Assembly: GCA_026025795.1 (NCBI GenBank)
Contig: JAPEUG010000055.1
Coordinates: forward strand, 1-64,000
From: Thelocarpon superellum
Taxonomy: Eukaryota
Reading direction: 5' to 3'
Length of the DNA: 64,000 bases
Below, piece after piece: positions 5,078 through 57,500 of this stretch. The notes beneath the pieces are model-generated. The model did not search any database. It was not told the DNA's origin and saw nothing but the letters and a program-made list of their open reading frames with translations. The position numbers were made by a program, and so were the translations under genes. Position 1 is the first letter of the stretch, and every line of letters begins with the position of its first letter.

Positions 5078-5846
5078 CTACAAATAGGCCAATATGCCAG
5101 AACTGACGACCGTGGCGCCAACGACGATCCAGCCCGTGCGAATGACCTGCTTATTGGCGAACGTCGAGCCCGTGTCCCACGAGAGGTAGCGGAGGCCGTT
5201 GAAGCAATGGAAAGTAAAGGGCATGGCGAGGCTGAACTTGGCCAGCACCTTGGCGGCCACGGGCCACGTCGCGACCGCCGCCGCGATGCTCGCCGAATCG
5301 AGGTGCCATCCGAACAGTGGCGCGGCTAGATAGGCCGTCGCGAAGACGTAGAGCCCGCCCGACAGAATCGTGCCCGTGATCCGGTTCAGGCCCGACGCGT
5401 ACCACGTTATCTGTGGTCGGTAGATGGATAGATGCGGTGAGAGTGGCCGTGCTAGTCGCTGCTTGACGAGGATATCGCTCGCTGCCGATTGGTTTACTTT
5501 CTGTGTCGTGATGGATCTGATGATGGAGGAGATGTGAGTGAGAAGTTGGTGGAGGTGTGCGGTGAGAGGGGGTAAGGAGAGGAGTCAGTTGGGAGCCGCT
5601 CTATCGTACCTTGATTGAACGAAGAGGGTCTGTAGAGCAATCGTAGCGGGCGCAGAGAATCTATGCACACCGCTGCGGGAGGATACTGCCTGTGTCGCGA
5701 CTGGGTTGGTTGAGCGTCAACGTCTGATAGCCTCCTTCCGTCTACTTCCCCGCCCTTGAAGCACATCACGCCGCTCGCCTCGACACACACGGATGAGACC
5801 ACTTACATCGACGCAGCGACTGCTGCGTTGTTCGATTCGCTAACAT
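5078..5846 (-). CDS. SDH3: Succinate dehydrogenase cytochrome b560 subunit (SdhC), multi-exon
   Basis: MLANRTTQQSLRR start; RPLSPHLSIYRPQITW..SGLNRITG and PFTFHCFNGLRYLSWDTG motifs typical of SdhC. Confidence 0.93.
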
Positions 5847-24051: not shown

Positions 24052-25016
24052 GCTGAGCACTTCCGTTCTCATTGCCGCGGTCTGGAACGTATCCATTGCG
24101 GACGTTTATATGGGGGCGTCTTGAGGTGGTAATCGCCTTGCCCATCACCAAGTCTGGGTGGGACACCTGATTGAACTCATTGATCTTATGAAGGTTACAA
24201 TCCTGAATTCACATCAACCGATGCCAGTAAACGGACCGGAGCCCACATTTATTTAGTAGGTGTTCACGTAATATCAAGCATGCGTAGGGAGTCTCGGAGC
24301 TGCAAAAAGCAAAACGTACAACAGCGGGGATTCGCTGGTCGTCACCGACCCAACTACTGGTCCGCCGATCTGTGGCTTATGTATGGCAGAGCGGACGGGA
24401 TGCCCAGTTCTCCACAGTCTATGGTCGTACGTACCCAGCATGTGCATAAAGCATTATCTATACTAGTTAATAGAATCTGCGCGGCAAAAACCCCGTCGAG
24501 GTCGATACGGCAATTCAACGGGCCGCATGCAAAATTTAGGGCGGGGTTCACGCGGCGGCTTGCCCGGGTGGCCCGATATTCCTCTTTCGACCAACCCGCC
24601 GCAAAATCCCATGCTCGAACGAACTTCACAAGATTTTTGACCCGGGCCGACCACACAGTATTCGAGACGGGACTAGGATTCAAGTTGGGGGAAACGGCAG
24701 GTCACTGGTCACATATGTCTCGTGACATCTGCTTAGAGGACCAGGAGGTAGAAAGGTGAGGGAGGCTCTTGTTTGTCTGACTGTCGCGCGACATGCTGGC
24801 GCTCGGATGAAAGACGGACAACAATCATAATCTAGATCACGACACCAAATCTTCCCGACGACCTCAATCAAGTTCACTTACCTCACCCTGTTTCCAGGCC
24901 ACCATCCCTGGTTGGGATGTACTCACTTCTCTCGCCCGGCTCTGGAATGATCTGAAAGAAGCCGCTGCTCTTCTCTTACCGTCAAAAACTTCCCACCTCG
25001 GTAGCTTGCCTTCTCC

Positions 25017-50829: not shown

Positions 50830-53072
50830 TTAGTCGCCTCCCAGCAACTCCCATAGACTCCCCTCTTGCACATAGGCATGATGAATCACATTCACGAGCC
50901 AGTAACCCTCCTTCACGTGCTTCAACAGCGCCGCCGTCGGCGACCGTGGTGGGTAGACACGCCGCCATTCGTCCCAGATGCTAAAAGCTTCTTCCTGCCA
51001 CGCGCGAAAGGACACGGCTTCGATGATGGTGGGCGTGATGATCCTGCGGCATGTCAGCACCAGGGTTGCCGCATGGATGTGACCTGGCACACGGACTCCT
51101 TGCCGGGAAATGCGCCCCACGTGACCGCGTTGACCGCGTCGACGTCCGACGACGCACTCTCCCCTGATGCGTTGCCGGCGTAGTACGACACCTCTTCGAG
51201 CGTGTCAAGTCGAGCGTGAAGGGCTGTCCATTCAGACGTGGGGAGAAAGAACTCCACAAAGGCCTTGGAGGACGACGTGAGCACCGCCATCTGGTATGGT
51301 AAGGAGACGCCCCACGGACCTTCTGAAAGACAAACCCCCCCTTGGGTCCCCACCCAAACAGACCGTGGTCACTTCGGACCCCGTTGACCGCCGGCTGGCT
51401 GGCCACGGTCCACCAGCCGCGTCGGTTCAGCTTGACCAGCTCGGATCGAATGGCGGCACTCTCCTCATTCAAGCCCTCCTCGCTCCATGGAAGGGCGTCG
51501 ACCTCACCCAAGACATGTCGCACGAAGATGTCGGAGATGTCGGCGGTGCTCGTCGGCGAGCCCCAGAGTCGCACCGCTTGGGATACGGACACATGCAGCG
51601 AGACGCCATATCCGTCAATCTCGCCGTACGCTGCCACATATCGTCAGCCTCACTTTCCTTCCCACGACCGCTTCCTGCGTCATCACATCACTCACCCGGT
51701 GACCGGGCGTCGCCCCAGCGGCCGTTGGGATAGTCGTCCCACGTCGCTTCCCTCCCCAGCGACCCCTCCCCCTCGGAAATGGCCAGGGTGTTCGCCCGGG
51801 TGTTGATCTTGTCTTTGGGGACGCCGGCCTCGTCCGCCGAGGCTTCAAAGTGCGAATTGCTCGACGCATCGTCCACCACGACCCGGTTGTAGGGGTCCGA
51901 CACGACCGACGACGTTCGGCGAGGATGCTGGCGAGGGGCGCCGATGGCCCCGCTGGCCCCGTTGCCGCCATTGGTCAGATGCTTGGTGCTGGTCTCCTCG
52001 ACCGCCACCTCATCCGGCGTATCCGGCGTCGAGGGCGCGATCAGGTGGCATCGTTCCAACACAAACGCCACGGCCTTTTCCAGGTTCAAGGTGTAGAAAT
52101 GAAAGCCTCGGGGCGTGGGCGACGGGCGGTCCTTGATCGCCTCGACGATGTCGCTGACAATCTCCACCCCGGCTCGCTTGACCGCCTCGTCATCCCCCTT
52201 GACGGCGTCGAGTCGCGCCAACATGGGGGCTGGAATCTTGGCGTGGCTGAGCTTCGTCGTGCGTCGCAGGAGCTGGTAGCTCTGGATCGGCATCAAGCCG
52301 GGGATGATGACCATCTCTGCGAAGACGCCGGATGGATCGTGTCGTAGCATGCTCTCAAACGCCTGATATGCCCGCACGTCGTAGAATAGCTGGGTCATGA
52401 TGAAGTCCGCGCCGGCCCGAGTCTTGTCGATCAGGGAAGGGAGGTCGTGTTGGGCACTTTGGCTCGCGGGGTAGGATTCGTCGGCGTGTCCTTCCGGGTA
52501 GGCGGCGACGCCGATGCAAAAGTATTGGCCGTGACGACGACGGATGTAGCGGACGAGATCGATGGCCCAGGTGAACTCGCCCTCGCCCTCGCCCTCGCCC
52601 TCGCCCTCGCCCTCGTCCTGGCCGTCGACCTCTCCCGGGTGCGGTGCGTGGCGATACTCCTCCTGCCGGGGCGGATCGCCTCGCAGGGCCAGGATGTTGC
52701 GGATGCCGAGGGCCTTGGCCTGGTCGAGCGCCTGGTCGACGAGCGAGCGGTTCATGTTGGTGCAGGTCAGATGCAGGCAGGTGGTGAGGCCCAGCTGTCG
52801 CTGGCAGATCTCGGCGAGCTCGAGCGACTTGCCGGCCGTGCTGCCGCCGGCGCCCCAGGTGACATTGACGAAGAGCGGTCGTAGGCCACGAGCCATTCGC
52901 TCGAGTCGGGCCTGGAGGTTGGCGGAGCCCTGTCCCCTGTCAGCACGGGGTGCCGTCACCGTTGGGGCCGGGTCCTCCTCCCTACCATGGCCGTCTTGGG
53001 CGGGAAGAACTCCAACGAGAAGAAGTGGCCGTTGGCCGGCAAGGCGGCGATCTTGTCCGTGATCTTCTCCAT
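50830..53072 (-). CDS. MTHFR: Methylenetetrahydrofolate reductase (probably the Met12-like paralogue), multi-exon
   Basis: FFSLEFFPPKT, VTWGAGG, CLHLTCTN, NILALRGDPP, IGVAAYPEGH, FIMTQLFYD, HFYTLNLE, WDDYPNGRWGDARSP; regulatory domain SQPAVNG and NAVTWG. Confidence 0.96.
52577..52612 (-). repeat. (TCGCCC)6 coding microsatellite, giving a Glu-Gly repeat in an MTHFR loop
   Basis: Seen directly; translates as DEGEGEGEGEGEGEF. Confidence 0.9.
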
Positions 53073-53300
53073 TGCCGCATCTCTCGCCTCTCCCGCGTCT
53101 CCCTCGAGAGCCTCGCTCGGGTGTCGCCGGGCTCGGACCAGGCCTCGGGGCCGCGGGGTGCACCTGTGTGGCGTATGTGAGGGGTCAGCACACGGCCGAC
53201 CGGTCAAACAAACGTCACGGCGACGAAGCGACGGAGCGACGAAGCGACGAAACTCGCAAGGTCCCACCGCAAGCCGCGCTAGTACCCTTCGGTACCAGCC

Positions 53301-53425
53301 AGGTCGCTCAATTTGGAACCCCGCAGCCGCTAAGCCCCCTGTAGCCGCTAGAGCCCCCCGTAGTCAACAAAGCCCCCCGTAGTCCCACTGTCAACCTCAA
53401 CGGTCGGGGTCCAAATTGAGCGCCT
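53301..53425. promoter_or_regulatory. Inverted repeat enclosing three AGCCCCCYGTAG direct repeats; putative bidirectional promoter
   Basis: Arms AGGTCGCTCAATTTGGAACCCCG and CGGGGTCCAAATTGAGCGCCT. TATAAAAAG follows at about 53430. The promoter role is inferred. Confidence 0.5.
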
Positions 53426-53449
53426 TTAGTATAAAAAGCTTGCGTCCCC

Positions 53450-53900
53450 GACATCCCGTCCATCAGTATTTTGTGTGTTTTTTCATCATAAGCTGAAGCT
53501 TACAGAGATCCTTCACATTTCATCATTTGGACGGGGGAAAAGTTCTCTCTCGTCCTCGCAGGGGGTTCAGACTGAGGATGAGACTCACCACGGCGACACT
53601 TCCTCTTCGCCTCTGGGTGGGGATGCGAAAGCGCCGCGGGATGTCACTGAAGTCGAAGGCCCACCGTCGCACTGTCCCGAATGTTATGGTGTCCGGTGCT
53701 GTTATCAGGTTGCATGTGGGTTGGTTTCCAGCAGAAGCCGACGCTTGCAGAAAGTCGTGGCTGTGTCAGACTGAGGATGAGACTCACCACCGCCACGTTC
53801 CTCTCCGCCTTCGGGCGGGGCTGCAAAGTGCGGCGGGATGTCACTGAAGTCCAAGGCCCACGACAGCACTCTTTCTTCTCGACTGTGCTGTGGGAGGCGA
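53450..53900 (+). ncRNA. Candidate structured ncRNA with two tandem kink-turn (box C/D-like) hairpins
   Basis: Repeats at 53570-53654 and 53769-53851: GACT-GAG-GATGA..CTGA-AGTC, covarying stems, a C(UUCG)G loop in copy 2, upstream TATA. Ends are approximate. Confidence 0.6.
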
Positions 53901-54596
53901 GGGAGAGGATCGGAGGAGACGAGGAAGATGTCCCGGCACGATCTGGCTGGGGCGGAGACCTGGCATTTATACCTGCGCCTCCGTCTACGAGTCTACTACG
54001 TTGATGCCTTCGTGCTCCTTGTGGCAGCGGCGATGGTATCGTGGGAAGATGCGGTGGAGGAGCGAACATCACGAGCGGGACGCATCGGGCAGGAATGACG
54101 GCGGCTACGGAGGGGGGCTGCATCAACCGTGTAGGTAACCGCCCGCTTCTCACGGCCCTCAGCAGTCGTGAGGCACCGAAGAGGCAGGGACGACCGGGCT
54201 GACGAAGACGATGGCTACTTTTGGGCGGATTCGTCAGAGATCGCCTTCCGAGGGCCAGTCTCACGGCAGAGACCCAGGCATGGTACGCTGACGAGCGGAA
54301 AGGAGAAGGGACGACGACTCCCTTCGCATCGGATGCGTGGCATGCCGGAGAGGATGGGGGAGGCACGGCGCCACGAACGACTCTACGGCAATGACGAGGA
54401 AGGGATAGAGGTGACCGGAGAGGTGTCGGATGGTGTTCAATTGAATGAGAGCGAGAAATGGCTACGACCATGGCATGTTCATGATCCCGTTACATGGCAG
54501 CGCCCCGTCGTGTCCGACATGACCCAGCCCACCCACGCAGTGGTATCCGTGAGCCTGCCCCCGCCCGTAAACGCCGACCCAGTGCTGTGTCCCCCT

Positions 54597-57500
54597 CTAG
54601 ACGCACGTCCATTCGGCAAAGACACACCAGCGAGCACTGCGATCCGCCAGCACCAGACCCCGCCAGACCCCCCGCTCGCCGCACTTGATGATCGTCTCCC
54701 ACACCCCGCCATCACCCGCCTCGCTGCCGCCCGGCCCGCTGGTGGAGATGGTGTGATCGTTCTTCCGCATCAGCCGCAGGATCTTGCCCGAGGGCGCCTG
54801 CACCGCCAGCTTGGCCGGCTTGGCCTGCGATGCCCCGTCGCTCGAGGGACCGCCGCCCGCGGCCGACGAGCTGGCCAGCGACATGGCCGAGCTGGGCCGG
54901 GGAAAGGGGATGGGCGAGGTCGAGCGCACGTCCGGCGAGACGTTGCGGGGCGCAGACGGGTGCTGGCGCACGGCAAAGACAAAGGTGTTGTTGACGGCGA
55001 GGCGTGCACATTGCGGCTGTGCCACGTAGAGGTCGTGTCGTTGCGCGTGCGGCGTTGGGTGGCGCGTCAGGAAGTCGTAGGCCGGGTTCTGCCCGTGGTG
55101 GACGATGGGCACCGCAAAGGCCAGCGGATGAGGATTGTCCTTGATCGAATGCTAGTGGCCGGTGAGCATGCCATCCTCGCTCTCCCCGCAGCCCGGGCGC
55201 AGGGTGGGGTGACTCACCATCAACCCCCTCTTCCCCGCATACACCTTGAGCACCCCCTGGCCCTCGTCCCCGGGCAAGAGCGCCTTGACCGTATACCGCT
55301 TCTGCCCGCCGATCCACTCGGCCTGGGCCAGCGCCCGCTTGCGCACCACGTCGCCGCTCTCGAACAGATCCCCGTCCGCGTCGCGCTCAAAGGCGCGGGC
55401 CTCGACCTCGGCGACACACTCGACGTCGTGGGGGACCACGACCTGGAGCTGCACCTGTTCCAGCTCCTCCGTCCACAGCAGGCTGGTGTCGTAGTCGCGC
55501 ATCTGGAGGCGATGCCGGAAGAAGGGCGCGCAGGCGCAGGGAAGGGCCATCAGGATGGCCTGGTGCACCGGCGGACACAGATGCTGCTGCGCCGCCGTCA
55601 TGGGGACGTGCGTGTAACAGGCCTCGAGCGGACGGGTCAGGAACCACCAGGCCTCGGCCGTCTGGGAATGCGAGCTCGAGTACTGGCTGCGGCGTGGATG
55701 TGTCGGGCTGGCCAAGGAGCAGTCCATGATGCGCCACTCGCCATCGGCCATCACCGCGTTCCACCAGTGATCCGGCCGCGGCACTGTCTCGCGCTCCATC
55801 GTCTCGCCGGGGGCCTTGAGGTGGCCGCGCACAACCTCGGCGTGCATGCCCATGGCCTGACACATCTCCAGCACGAGCACCGCCACCTCCTCGGCACATC
55901 CGCGCTTGAGCTGGATCACCCGACGCGAGTCGACCTCGCCCTCAAAGTCCTCCTCCCACGAGATCTTCTCGCTGACCCAGATGAAGATGGCCCGCAGGCG
56001 CTGCACGTCGCTCCGGTACGGGCGACAGAGGTAGCCTTGCGCCAGGCTGATGGGGTTGGTCATGGGCGGGATGTTGTTGACGAAGCGCGCGCTCTTGTCC
56101 ACCAGCGTCAGATTCACGGCCTGGAAGTTGGTCGGGCCCTCGACCGGCCGACCGTCGACGCCCTCGTCGCCGTGCGTCGAGTGGCGCAGCTCGTCGACCG
56201 GCCGAAGACACGGCCGGTCCAACATCTGGCACCGTTCCTGCCGCTCCACCCGCTCGTTCCGACTGAGCGAGTTCGACCGGTTGACGTCACGCCGGACCTG
56301 GACCCAATCGATGGCCGTGCCGCCGCCATTGGCCTCGGCCTCCGTCGCCGCCATCCCTCCCGCGATGGCCGTCACTCCGTGGGGCAAACCGCTCGCCGTC
56401 GGGGCGAGGGACGTGGCGGCGTGCCCGGGCGCGATACTGCTCCGGGCGCTGGCGGCGCTCGTCTTGGCCGTGTCCATGATCTTCTTGAAAAAACCACTCT
56501 TCTTCGGGCGCGGCGCCATCAGGCCCCCGAGCGGACCCTGAGCGCTCGTCCCGCTCGCCGGCCCACCAGCCTGCGATCCGTCGGGCGTCGACGTGTCGTA
56601 GCCCGAGTGAAAGGTGACGCCGGTGAGGGGCGTTTCGGGTCGGCCCGTGCCGGAGGCGGAGAGCGGGCCCACCGCACTGCCCGCCGTCGTCTCCATCACG
56701 CTCATGGGCCGGGAGCGGAGGGTACCAAAGGCGCCACGTCGGCGCGCCAAGCTTCCCGCACTGGTGGCACTGCAGCCGCCGGCGCTGGCGGCACTCACCC
56801 CGCCGGCCGACTGTCCGCTCATGACGCTGCGGCTGGTCAGCTGCGTGCTGCCGCTGTGGGCGGTGCTCGTGCTCTGTACTCCCGACGACGAGTTCGTCGC
56901 GGTGGATCGAGTGGTGAAGGTGCGGCCCAGCATCTGACGCCCGAGCTCGTAGGCCGACTTCCGGTTCTTCAAGCGTTTGCTAGTATCGGGAGCGTCGGTG
57001 GTCGGCTGAGTCTGCGCCAGCGAGGACACGGGCCGCCCGTCAAAGGAGGCACGCTTGGGCGGGACAGCGGGGGGTGGGCCAAAGTCGGGCGAGCCCTCCT
57101 TGGAAGGAAGGAAGAGCTCATCGGGCGCTCGCCGGCCGGATTGCTGCTGCATTCCTTGCAAGCGGCGCTCCATGCGGTGCACGTAGTTGTCCGGCTGCAG
57201 TGGGCCGCGATCGTCGCCGTACGCAAACTCAAGCTCGTCCTCCTCGTCGTGATCGTGCGCGCCGCCGAACCCCAGGGAGGTCACGGGTCGAGCGGGACGA
57301 CGGGCGAACGTCTTGGACAGCTGCTGATCGAAGGCTTCGGGCGACCAGGGATTGAGCGGCGAGCGGTTGCGCGACGGCGGCGAGGGGGGGTGCACGCTCA
57401 TGTCTTTGAGAGACGACATGACATCCTCCATGGCATCGCGGAGGGGCGATGGCGTGGTGCGCGAGAGATTGGGCGAGCGCGGCACGGCGGACGTCGGGCG

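Follow-up and report, generated by a model that had tools for sequence, protein, structure and literature searches.

Box C/D snoRNAs such as U14 (Y domain) and the acetylation guides snR4, snR45 and U13 carry two conserved elements that flank a central hairpin. Elements of this type can also sit within pre-mRNAs, as in the kink-turn at the 5' splice site of the RPL30 pre-mRNA and snoRD86 in the NOP56 pre-mRNA, both of which lie on the sense strand. Hairpins for RNase III (Rnt1) occur in snoRNA precursors and introns (e.g. U18 and snR38), and fungi have introner-like elements. Cis-acting snoRNAs are reviewed in PMC11028025. In Neurospora crassa, the snoRNA catalogue prints AGGAUGA as the box C of CD50, the U24 homologue, an RNA validated by northern blot and RT (PMC2780460). 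The same catalogue gives 45 of 55 C/D snoRNAs as intronic, mostly 41-60 nt from the splice donor.

Here, we describe two tandem repeats that bear on several of these systems. They were found in a 64-kb stretch of GC-rich fungal DNA (the window, i.e. the whole stretch analysed), between the genes for MTHFR and a CYK3-like protein that groups with Ascomycota proteins. Both flanking genes lie on the minus strand, a fact overlooked in the original prediction, which had read the repeats as a standalone plus-strand RNA; CYK3 extends from 58070 through one short intron to a stop near 54599. What the repeats are depends on the strand, and the kink-turn motif alone does not determine it. Our tentative preference, at a probability of roughly 40%, is that they would be orphan and atypical small RNAs of C/D-like type, encoded opposite the first two splice donors of a host transcript. 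In the literature searched, we found neither a C/D-type motif described as antisense to the splice donors of its host nor a snoRNA hosted by MTHFR.

The repeat module and its divergence

The repeat consists of two copies of a module of about 105 nt:

53567..53676, plus strand: repeat module copy 1, with a hairpin at 53570-53654, the C/D-like motif GACU-GAG-GAUGA ... CUGA-AGUC and then a conserved tail (AAGGCCCAC..GCAC)
53766..53875, plus strand: repeat module copy 2, with a hairpin at 53769-53851 and motif and tail as in copy 1

The copies are identical at 95 of 114 aligned columns (z 17 against shuffles). Similarity begins 3 nt 5' of the terminal stem, and the stretches flanking the copies and the spacers are unalignable, with no residual similarity (z -0.3 and -1.1). 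The two shared blocks reported originally, a 25-nt block (TCAGACTGAGGATGAGACTCACCAC) and a block reading GCGGGATGTCACTGAAGTC-N-AAGGCCCAC, are each present twice and exact, with starts 199 and 197 nt apart. No further copy of either block exists in the 64 kb, even with up to three mismatches allowed. Likewise, a covariance model built from the pair matches only the pair in the window (E 1e-31 and 4e-29), the next match having an E of 0.7.

The differences are confined largely to the centre of the module, in agreement with the divergent middle described at the outset. In the 48 outer columns, which hold the stem, the boxes and the sequence next to them, only one differs, against 12 of the 44 central columns (Fisher p 0.0006). 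That is, the centre has diverged by 27%, and about 54 nucleotides at the ends are identical. Because the divergence is so uneven, the ends of the module are under a constraint that is not common to its middle.

The same pattern bears on the idea that the repeats are a relic or mobile module with no present function, i.e. a unit of about 105 nt copied locally, for example an introner-like element or an inverted snoRNA copy in decay. The module is all that the copies share, their spacers have no residual similarity, and it can be read as a short minus-strand intron (GUGGGC ... CUCAU ... CAG). Its absence from related loci, described below, would also fit. We nevertheless consider this origin unlikely: clustered differences are not expected from neutral decay, no additional copies are present in the window, GUGGGC is a weak donor, and the ends are not inverted repeats and have no target-site duplication that could be seen on reading the sequence.

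A peptide repeat is very improbable. ORFs of 99-275 aa do cross the repeats on both strands, but the 199-nt spacing with indels breaks the reading frame, as the original prediction had argued. In addition, Pfam gives no match above cut-off for five ORFs (one at E 0.18), two ORF translations used as bait found no relatives, and the translations are Arg/Pro/Ser-rich and of low complexity, as in non-coding GC-rich DNA.

Relatives were sought in 79 MTHFR-anchored fungal loci, in which the MTHFR protein is 60-72% identical. The homologues from which the original prediction had hoped to draw covariation did not appear in any of these loci. A blastn-short search with the repeats gave nothing convincing (best E 0.052; the two matches inspected were a splice site of an unrelated gene and an unrelated sequence), and the best covariance-model match had an E of 0.85. 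Where the match included the N-terminus (72 loci, of which those with less than 200 nt upstream were skipped), a loose C/D finder returned a single weak candidate upstream of MTHFR. CYK3 lies upstream of MTHFR on the same strand in six of the related loci and downstream on the opposite strand in seven, and the gap in syntenic loci is much shorter than here. In L070, the closest syntenic relative, it is about 480 nt; neither this locus nor L002 holds the repeat or a snoRNA by eye. L070 does have an AUGAUG...CUGA at 5738-5815, some 45 nt ahead of the ATG on the sense strand of MTHFR, with no convincing terminal stem, and the finder did not pick it up. A metagenome pattern made from the two conserved blocks gave 0 matches. 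Neither string search nor inspection by eye found a homologue of the repeats in the available part of the N. crassa snoRNA catalogue (PMC2780460). At this phylogenetic distance (MTHFR identity of at most 72%), the sequence comparison indicates that the insert is lineage-specific.

Other classes of element were also considered. A tRNA or SINE origin was rejected (0 tRNAs), and hammerhead, SECIS, U3, U14, H/ACA and MITE readings were dropped because core motifs or end structures are missing. A scan for bacterial-type promoters and terminators was empty, which is irrelevant here.

The kink-turn motif on the plus strand

On the plus strand, both copies have the motif as first claimed: a GACU/AGUC stem, a GAG bulge, G.A/A.G, U.U and G-C. 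Each copy can thus form a hairpin with a complete C/D-type kink-turn motif at its base, which counts for a C/D reading of this strand. At the sequence level the kink-turn is found on the plus strand only, the same columns being U.C, C.U and A.A on the minus strand. The candidate box C is AGGAUGA in both copies, the form printed for CD50, and agrees with RUGAUGA at six of seven positions (G for U at loop position L3). Box D (CUGA) is followed directly by the AGUC that pairs with GACU, so each copy has a box D beside a 4-bp terminal stem. No C'/D' boxes were found that are convincing or kept in both copies; copy 1 has weak CUGG/GGAUGCGA look-alikes that are absent from copy 2. Together, a C/D-type kink-turn and identical ends around a variable middle fit a small C/D-like RNA, as had been proposed.

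The statement that the repeats belong to no Rfam family also stands, with zero plus-strand matches in a 321-nt stretch even at E<=10. Specifically, no C/D family matches the repeats at this threshold, whereas a neighbouring minus-strand snoRNA (see below) matches about a dozen. Taken as a whole, the twin repeat is real and under constraint, and it matches no Rfam family. The loose C/D finder returns three candidates in the 64 kb, namely the two repeats and the canonical snoRNA, all within a span of less than 400 nt; shuffled windows have a mean of 0.47 (30 shuffles). Real fungal DNA yields such candidates too, with 18 distinct ones in 638,563 bases or about 1.8 per 64 kb, so the loose C/D pattern carries little weight by itself.

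Guide targets were searched for in 10 Rfam-annotated rRNA segments (SSU, 5.8S and LSU) from three contaminant rDNA contigs in bacterial assemblies, which are not of this organism and which cover fungal LSU up to about nt 2200; the search was confined to rRNA. The only contig giving a complete LSU has a 5.8S that looks plant-like. The 11 nt upstream of box D gave no anchored rRNA match of at least 9 bp with at most one G.U in these references, a test of low power in that the canonical snoRNA itself reached only 9 bp (its best complementarity, to the 3' part of an LSU). Unanchored rRNA matches of the repeats were at chance level (2 and 8, partly redundant, vs 3.55 in shuffles). No complementarity to 18S helix 34/45 or to U14 target sites was found in the contaminant references, and five standard primers found no rDNA in the 79 MTHFR loci. 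With neither C'/D' boxes nor a target or family match found, the repeats are not filed as members of the box C/D snoRNAs.

The structural evidence fared less well. Folding energies of each copy are no better than those of shuffled sequence on either strand (z -0.31 and -0.55 on plus, +0.65 and +0.86 on minus for copies 1 and 2; for the whole 376 nt, -0.29 on plus and +1.23 on minus). Isolated copies fold slightly better on the plus strand (-35.2 and -35.4 kcal/mol vs -31.5 and -33.9 on the minus strand), which counts for the plus reading. Pairing in the divergent centre is indeed kept, with 13/13 and 11/13 central pairs holding, but the compensatory support claimed for it is not significant: across 24 pairs there are one compensatory change, two one-sided changes and two broken pairs, 237 of 500 shuffles do as well, and by our own estimate about one two-sided change is expected by chance at 27% central divergence. 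Covariation from two copies only is not significant. The wobble pairs said to point to the plus strand number 3 and 1 there and 2 and 2 on the minus strand (same register), and the C(UUCG)G loop, cited for the same purpose, has its UUCG in copy 2 only. In short, the repeats, the kink-turn motif and the divergent middle of the original prediction hold up, and the support that it drew from G.U pairs and covariation does not.

The kept central pairing also speaks to a DNA-level role, in which repeated binding sites about 200 bp apart would act in the shared region upstream of MTHFR, with no part for RNA. Such sites would fit the presence, 500-800 bp ahead of the MTHFR ATG, of two perfectly conserved boxes around a variable spacer, and on the minus strand CAGTGACA is one mismatch from CAGTCACA, the consensus of the fission-yeast Homol-D box. 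This explanation is nonetheless quite improbable: pairing held at 13/13 and 11/13 would be superfluous for a binding site, the two boxes, at 25 and about 30 bp, are long and show partial complementarity to one another, the minus strand seems to be transcribed here, and Homol-D has been described for fission yeasts only. The name of the box is that used in PMC4138321.

Beyond the hairpins, the conserved tail (GGCCCAC..GCAC) pairs in both copies with a non-homologous downstream GUGC..GUGGG to form a second hairpin (53658-53724 and 53855-53900), with a z of about -2.8 to -3.0 in copy 2 and no significance in copy 1. Spacer hairpins of a similar sort occur in polycistronic snoRNA precursors, which counts for the C/D reading. 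Separately, a purine-rich tract at 53896-53930 on the plus strand (CT-rich on the minus strand) shows nested complementarity to the CU-rich arms of the two apical stems; this may be chance in low-complexity sequence.

Genes, a snoRNA and splice signals on the minus strand

The opposite strand carries a second set of signals through the same blocks. The features, of which the intron and the promoter are predicted from the sequence, are as follows:

51688..53072, minus strand: coding start and first exons of MTHFR (ATG at 53072, MEKITDKIAALPANGHFFSLEFFPPKTAM)
53275..53422, minus strand: strongly structured domain directly after the branch site, in which a 17-nt inverted repeat (53305-53321/53406-53422) closes three 19-nt repeats
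53425..53431, minus strand: UACUAAA, 24 nt downstream of the snoRNA and likely the branch point of its intron
53455..53535, minus strand: canonical box C/D snoRNA with an 8-bp terminal stem, box C AUGAUGA, C' UGAUGA and box D CUGA
53583..53588, minus strand: GUGAGU splice donor in copy 1 (context GUG/GUGAGU), 53 nt upstream of the snoRNA
53699..53787, minus strand: putative intron 1 of 89 nt, with a GUGAGU donor in copy 2, a CUGAU branch (53708-53704) and a CAG acceptor (53701-53699)
53891..53971, minus strand: candidate promoter for the minus-strand unit, made up of TATAAAT (53971-53965) and then a CT-rich tract (53930-53891)

The canonical snoRNA, also overlooked originally, adjoins copy 1 at a distance of 34 nt and lies on the strand opposite to the plus reading of the repeats. 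Its fold has a z of -3.80 (0/200 shuffles as good), and the Rfam C/D families that it matches score 15-24 bits, all below the gathering score. No homologue was found in the 79 MTHFR-anchored loci, nor by string search and by eye in the available part of the N. crassa catalogue (PMC2780460). Its surroundings are those of an intron-hosted snoRNA: the GUGAGU upstream, the UACUAAA downstream and several YAG beyond as candidate acceptors. Each repeat, read on the minus strand, carries a G/GUGAGU donor, with ACUCACC as its conserved complement on the plus strand. GU[AG]AGU would fall in a 20-nt window with a chance of about 0.007, and the two strands of the 64 kb, 128 kb in all, hold four TACTAA.

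The branch region also bears on the only promoter cue for the plus strand. The AT-rich patch at UACUAAA reads TATAAAAA on the plus strand (53430-53437), and the 'TATA' seen there is the antisense of the U-rich/UACUAAA branch region, so that the minus-strand signals account for it too. The structured domain folds better on the minus strand (-77.8 kcal/mol, z -4.77, 0/200 shuffles) than on the plus strand (-54.0 kcal/mol, z -3.44), and could hide any AGs that lie between the branch point and the acceptor. Within 53275-53445, the inverted repeat encloses three direct repeats (AAGCCCCCYGTAG) and the structure starts 3 nt after UACUAAA. Outside the snoRNA, ATG is depleted between 53895 and 53073 on the minus strand (3 observed vs 8.7 expected, P 0.027) and not on the plus strand (9 vs 8.1).

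Since the snoRNA, the donors, UACUAAA, the structured domain, CUGAU..CAG, the TATAAAT/CT-rich tract and the ATG depletion all agree, a minus-strand transcript very likely runs through the repeats. This transcript is probably a long leader of MTHFR that carries the snoRNA in one of its introns, and the repeats are probably antisense to it. The picture of a standalone RNA in an intergenic gap has therefore to be given up: the repeats face a minus-strand unit with a canonical snoRNA in a well-signalled intron, and each holds one of that unit's donors. What survives of the earlier interpretation is the plus-strand C/D-type motif and the absence of an Rfam family, not the standalone setting or the arguments for the strand.

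Some further observations concern the same strand. An H/ACA snoRNA was looked for on the minus strand, where the hinge has no H box and an ACA follows copy 2 only. A possible additional 55-nt intron lies in the MTHFR leader at 53164-53218 (GUGACG ... GCUGAC ... ACAG), three tandem 8-nt units (GCGACGAA/GCGACGGA) occupy 53220-53249 of the presumed leader, and an out-of-frame upstream ATG is found at 53080, 8 nt before the MTHFR start codon. Within MTHFR, a (Gly-Glu)n low-complexity insertion falls in the catalytic region at about 52400-52480. Elsewhere, a dispersed 5S rRNA gene at 24313-24432, also on the minus strand, is the sole Rfam match at gathering score in the window.

Given these signals, the repeats might act on the minus strand only. 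Pre-mRNA hairpins spanning the exon end and the first ~22 nt of the intron would hold GUGAGU in a helix, and the plus-strand kink-turn would be a chance match. In one variant, the donor hairpins would set or regulate the two donors, with effects on the skipping of exon 2, on how much intronic snoRNA is made and on MTHFR mRNA output; in another, the hairpin would give RNase III a point of entry, so that the snoRNA is released without splicing. This is a close rival of our preferred reading and only slightly less probable. Transcription through the repeats is well supported by the signals above, and the donor lies 53 nt from the snoRNA, within the 41-60 nt usual among the mostly intronic C/D snoRNAs of N. 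crassa (PMC2780460). Copy 2's donor is followed within 89 nt by CUGAU..CAG. The conservation reaches 22 nt into the intron, which calls for a role before splicing, and the basal helix gains two wobble pairs on the minus strand where the plus strand has A.C and C.A mismatches. On the other hand, splicing requires about 9 conserved nucleotides against the 54 that are identical, leaving most conserved bases unexplained, and the exact GAUGA/CUGA and stem geometry would be a coincidence (by a rough estimate, a few per thousand for such a hairpin). Folding on the minus strand is no more stable than in shuffles, three of the eight apical-stem pairs of copy 1 are A.C mismatches there, and burying a donor in a hairpin of about -32 kcal/mol would impede snoRNA production.

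Two strands, one pair of blocks, and comparison with known systems

Two individually unlikely features thus occupy opposite strands of the same blocks, a C/D kink-turn (plus) and a well-spaced consensus donor (minus), and on rough likelihoods they are close to even. The minus-strand signals facing the repeats (the donor, UACUAAA, the structured domain and the ATG depletion) are strong and count against the plus-strand reading. We rank the latter first because it accounts for the ~54 identical end nucleotides and for the onset of similarity 3 nt before the terminal stem.

In the C/D-like reading, the two repeats would be paralogous genes for small box C/D-type (kink-turn) RNAs expressed from the plus strand, each RNA about 85 nt long with its ends joined by the 4-bp terminal stem. 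The variant box C (AGGAUGA) and box D (CUGA) would form a kink-turn for Snu13 to bind, followed by the Nop56/Nop58/Nop1 core, and this core would shield the RNA while exonucleases trim a longer precursor. Expression from the plus strand, protein binding and processing are all predicted here from the motif, in distinction to what can be read directly (the repeat, the motif, the uneven conservation, and the opposite-strand snoRNA with its splice signals). The RNAs would be antisense to the first two exon-intron junctions of the minus transcript, most likely a long MTHFR 5' leader whose second intron carries the canonical C/D snoRNA. The two donors of that transcript, being the reverse complement of the repeats' ACUCACC, would then represent opportunistic use of this conserved sequence. 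The interior of each repeat is an irregular hairpin rather than an open guide region, and for this reason we see the putative RNAs as orphan or non-methylating.

The two strands could also be coupled. MTHFR supplies methyl groups that end in SAM, the co-substrate of the snoRNP methyltransferase Nop1. Two antisense C/D-type RNPs, perfectly complementary to the first two MTHFR-leader donors, might tie MTHFR output to the level of C/D snoRNP components, by donor masking or by convergent transcription. We give this little credence; were it true, it would form a feedback loop between methyl supply and the RNA-methylation machinery. Should plus-strand RNAs exist, as we tentatively favour, the locus would encode C/D-type RNPs that carry no recognisable guide and lie antisense to the splice donors in the leader of a metabolic gene. 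Should the minus strand alone be in use, tandem conserved donor-sequestering hairpins in a snoRNA-hosting MTHFR leader would be a candidate for splicing control in one-carbon metabolism. Either reading corrects the annotation, adding an unannotated canonical snoRNA and a long, intron-bearing MTHFR leader.

Among known systems, box C/D snoRNAs (e.g. CD50 of N. crassa, the U24 homologue; PMC2780460) are the closest kind. The repeats resemble them in having a terminal stem right beside boxes C and D, a length of about 85 nt and the AGGAUGA variant, and in being tandem paralogues with diverged spacers that adjoin another C/D snoRNA. They differ in having no C'/D' boxes, no rRNA target among the references searched, a GC-rich hairpin interior and no Rfam C/D family, and in lying on the strand opposite to the neighbouring snoRNA and its host transcript.

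The order of parts (box C first, box D last, and between them a variable hairpin with a short conserved element on either side) is also that of U14, snR4, snR45 and U13. Here, however, the two conserved elements pair with each other, and no complementarity to helix 34/45 or to U14 sites was found in the references searched. As in RPL30 and snoRD86, a kink-turn or C/D element sits physically on a splice donor, but in the repeats the kink-turn is on the antisense strand.

Introner-like elements share with the repeats the character of a short, structured, repeated unit with splice signals inside a transcript. The repeats depart from them in having only two adjacent copies, central clustered divergence and their strongest donor internal, not terminal. 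Finally, like Rnt1 hairpins, copy 1 places a long hairpin ahead of a C/D snoRNA, 35 nt from it and within one minus-strand precursor. Unlike them, the repeats have no AGNN tetraloop, one copy has no snoRNA behind it, and their conservation goes far above what a cleavage stem needs.
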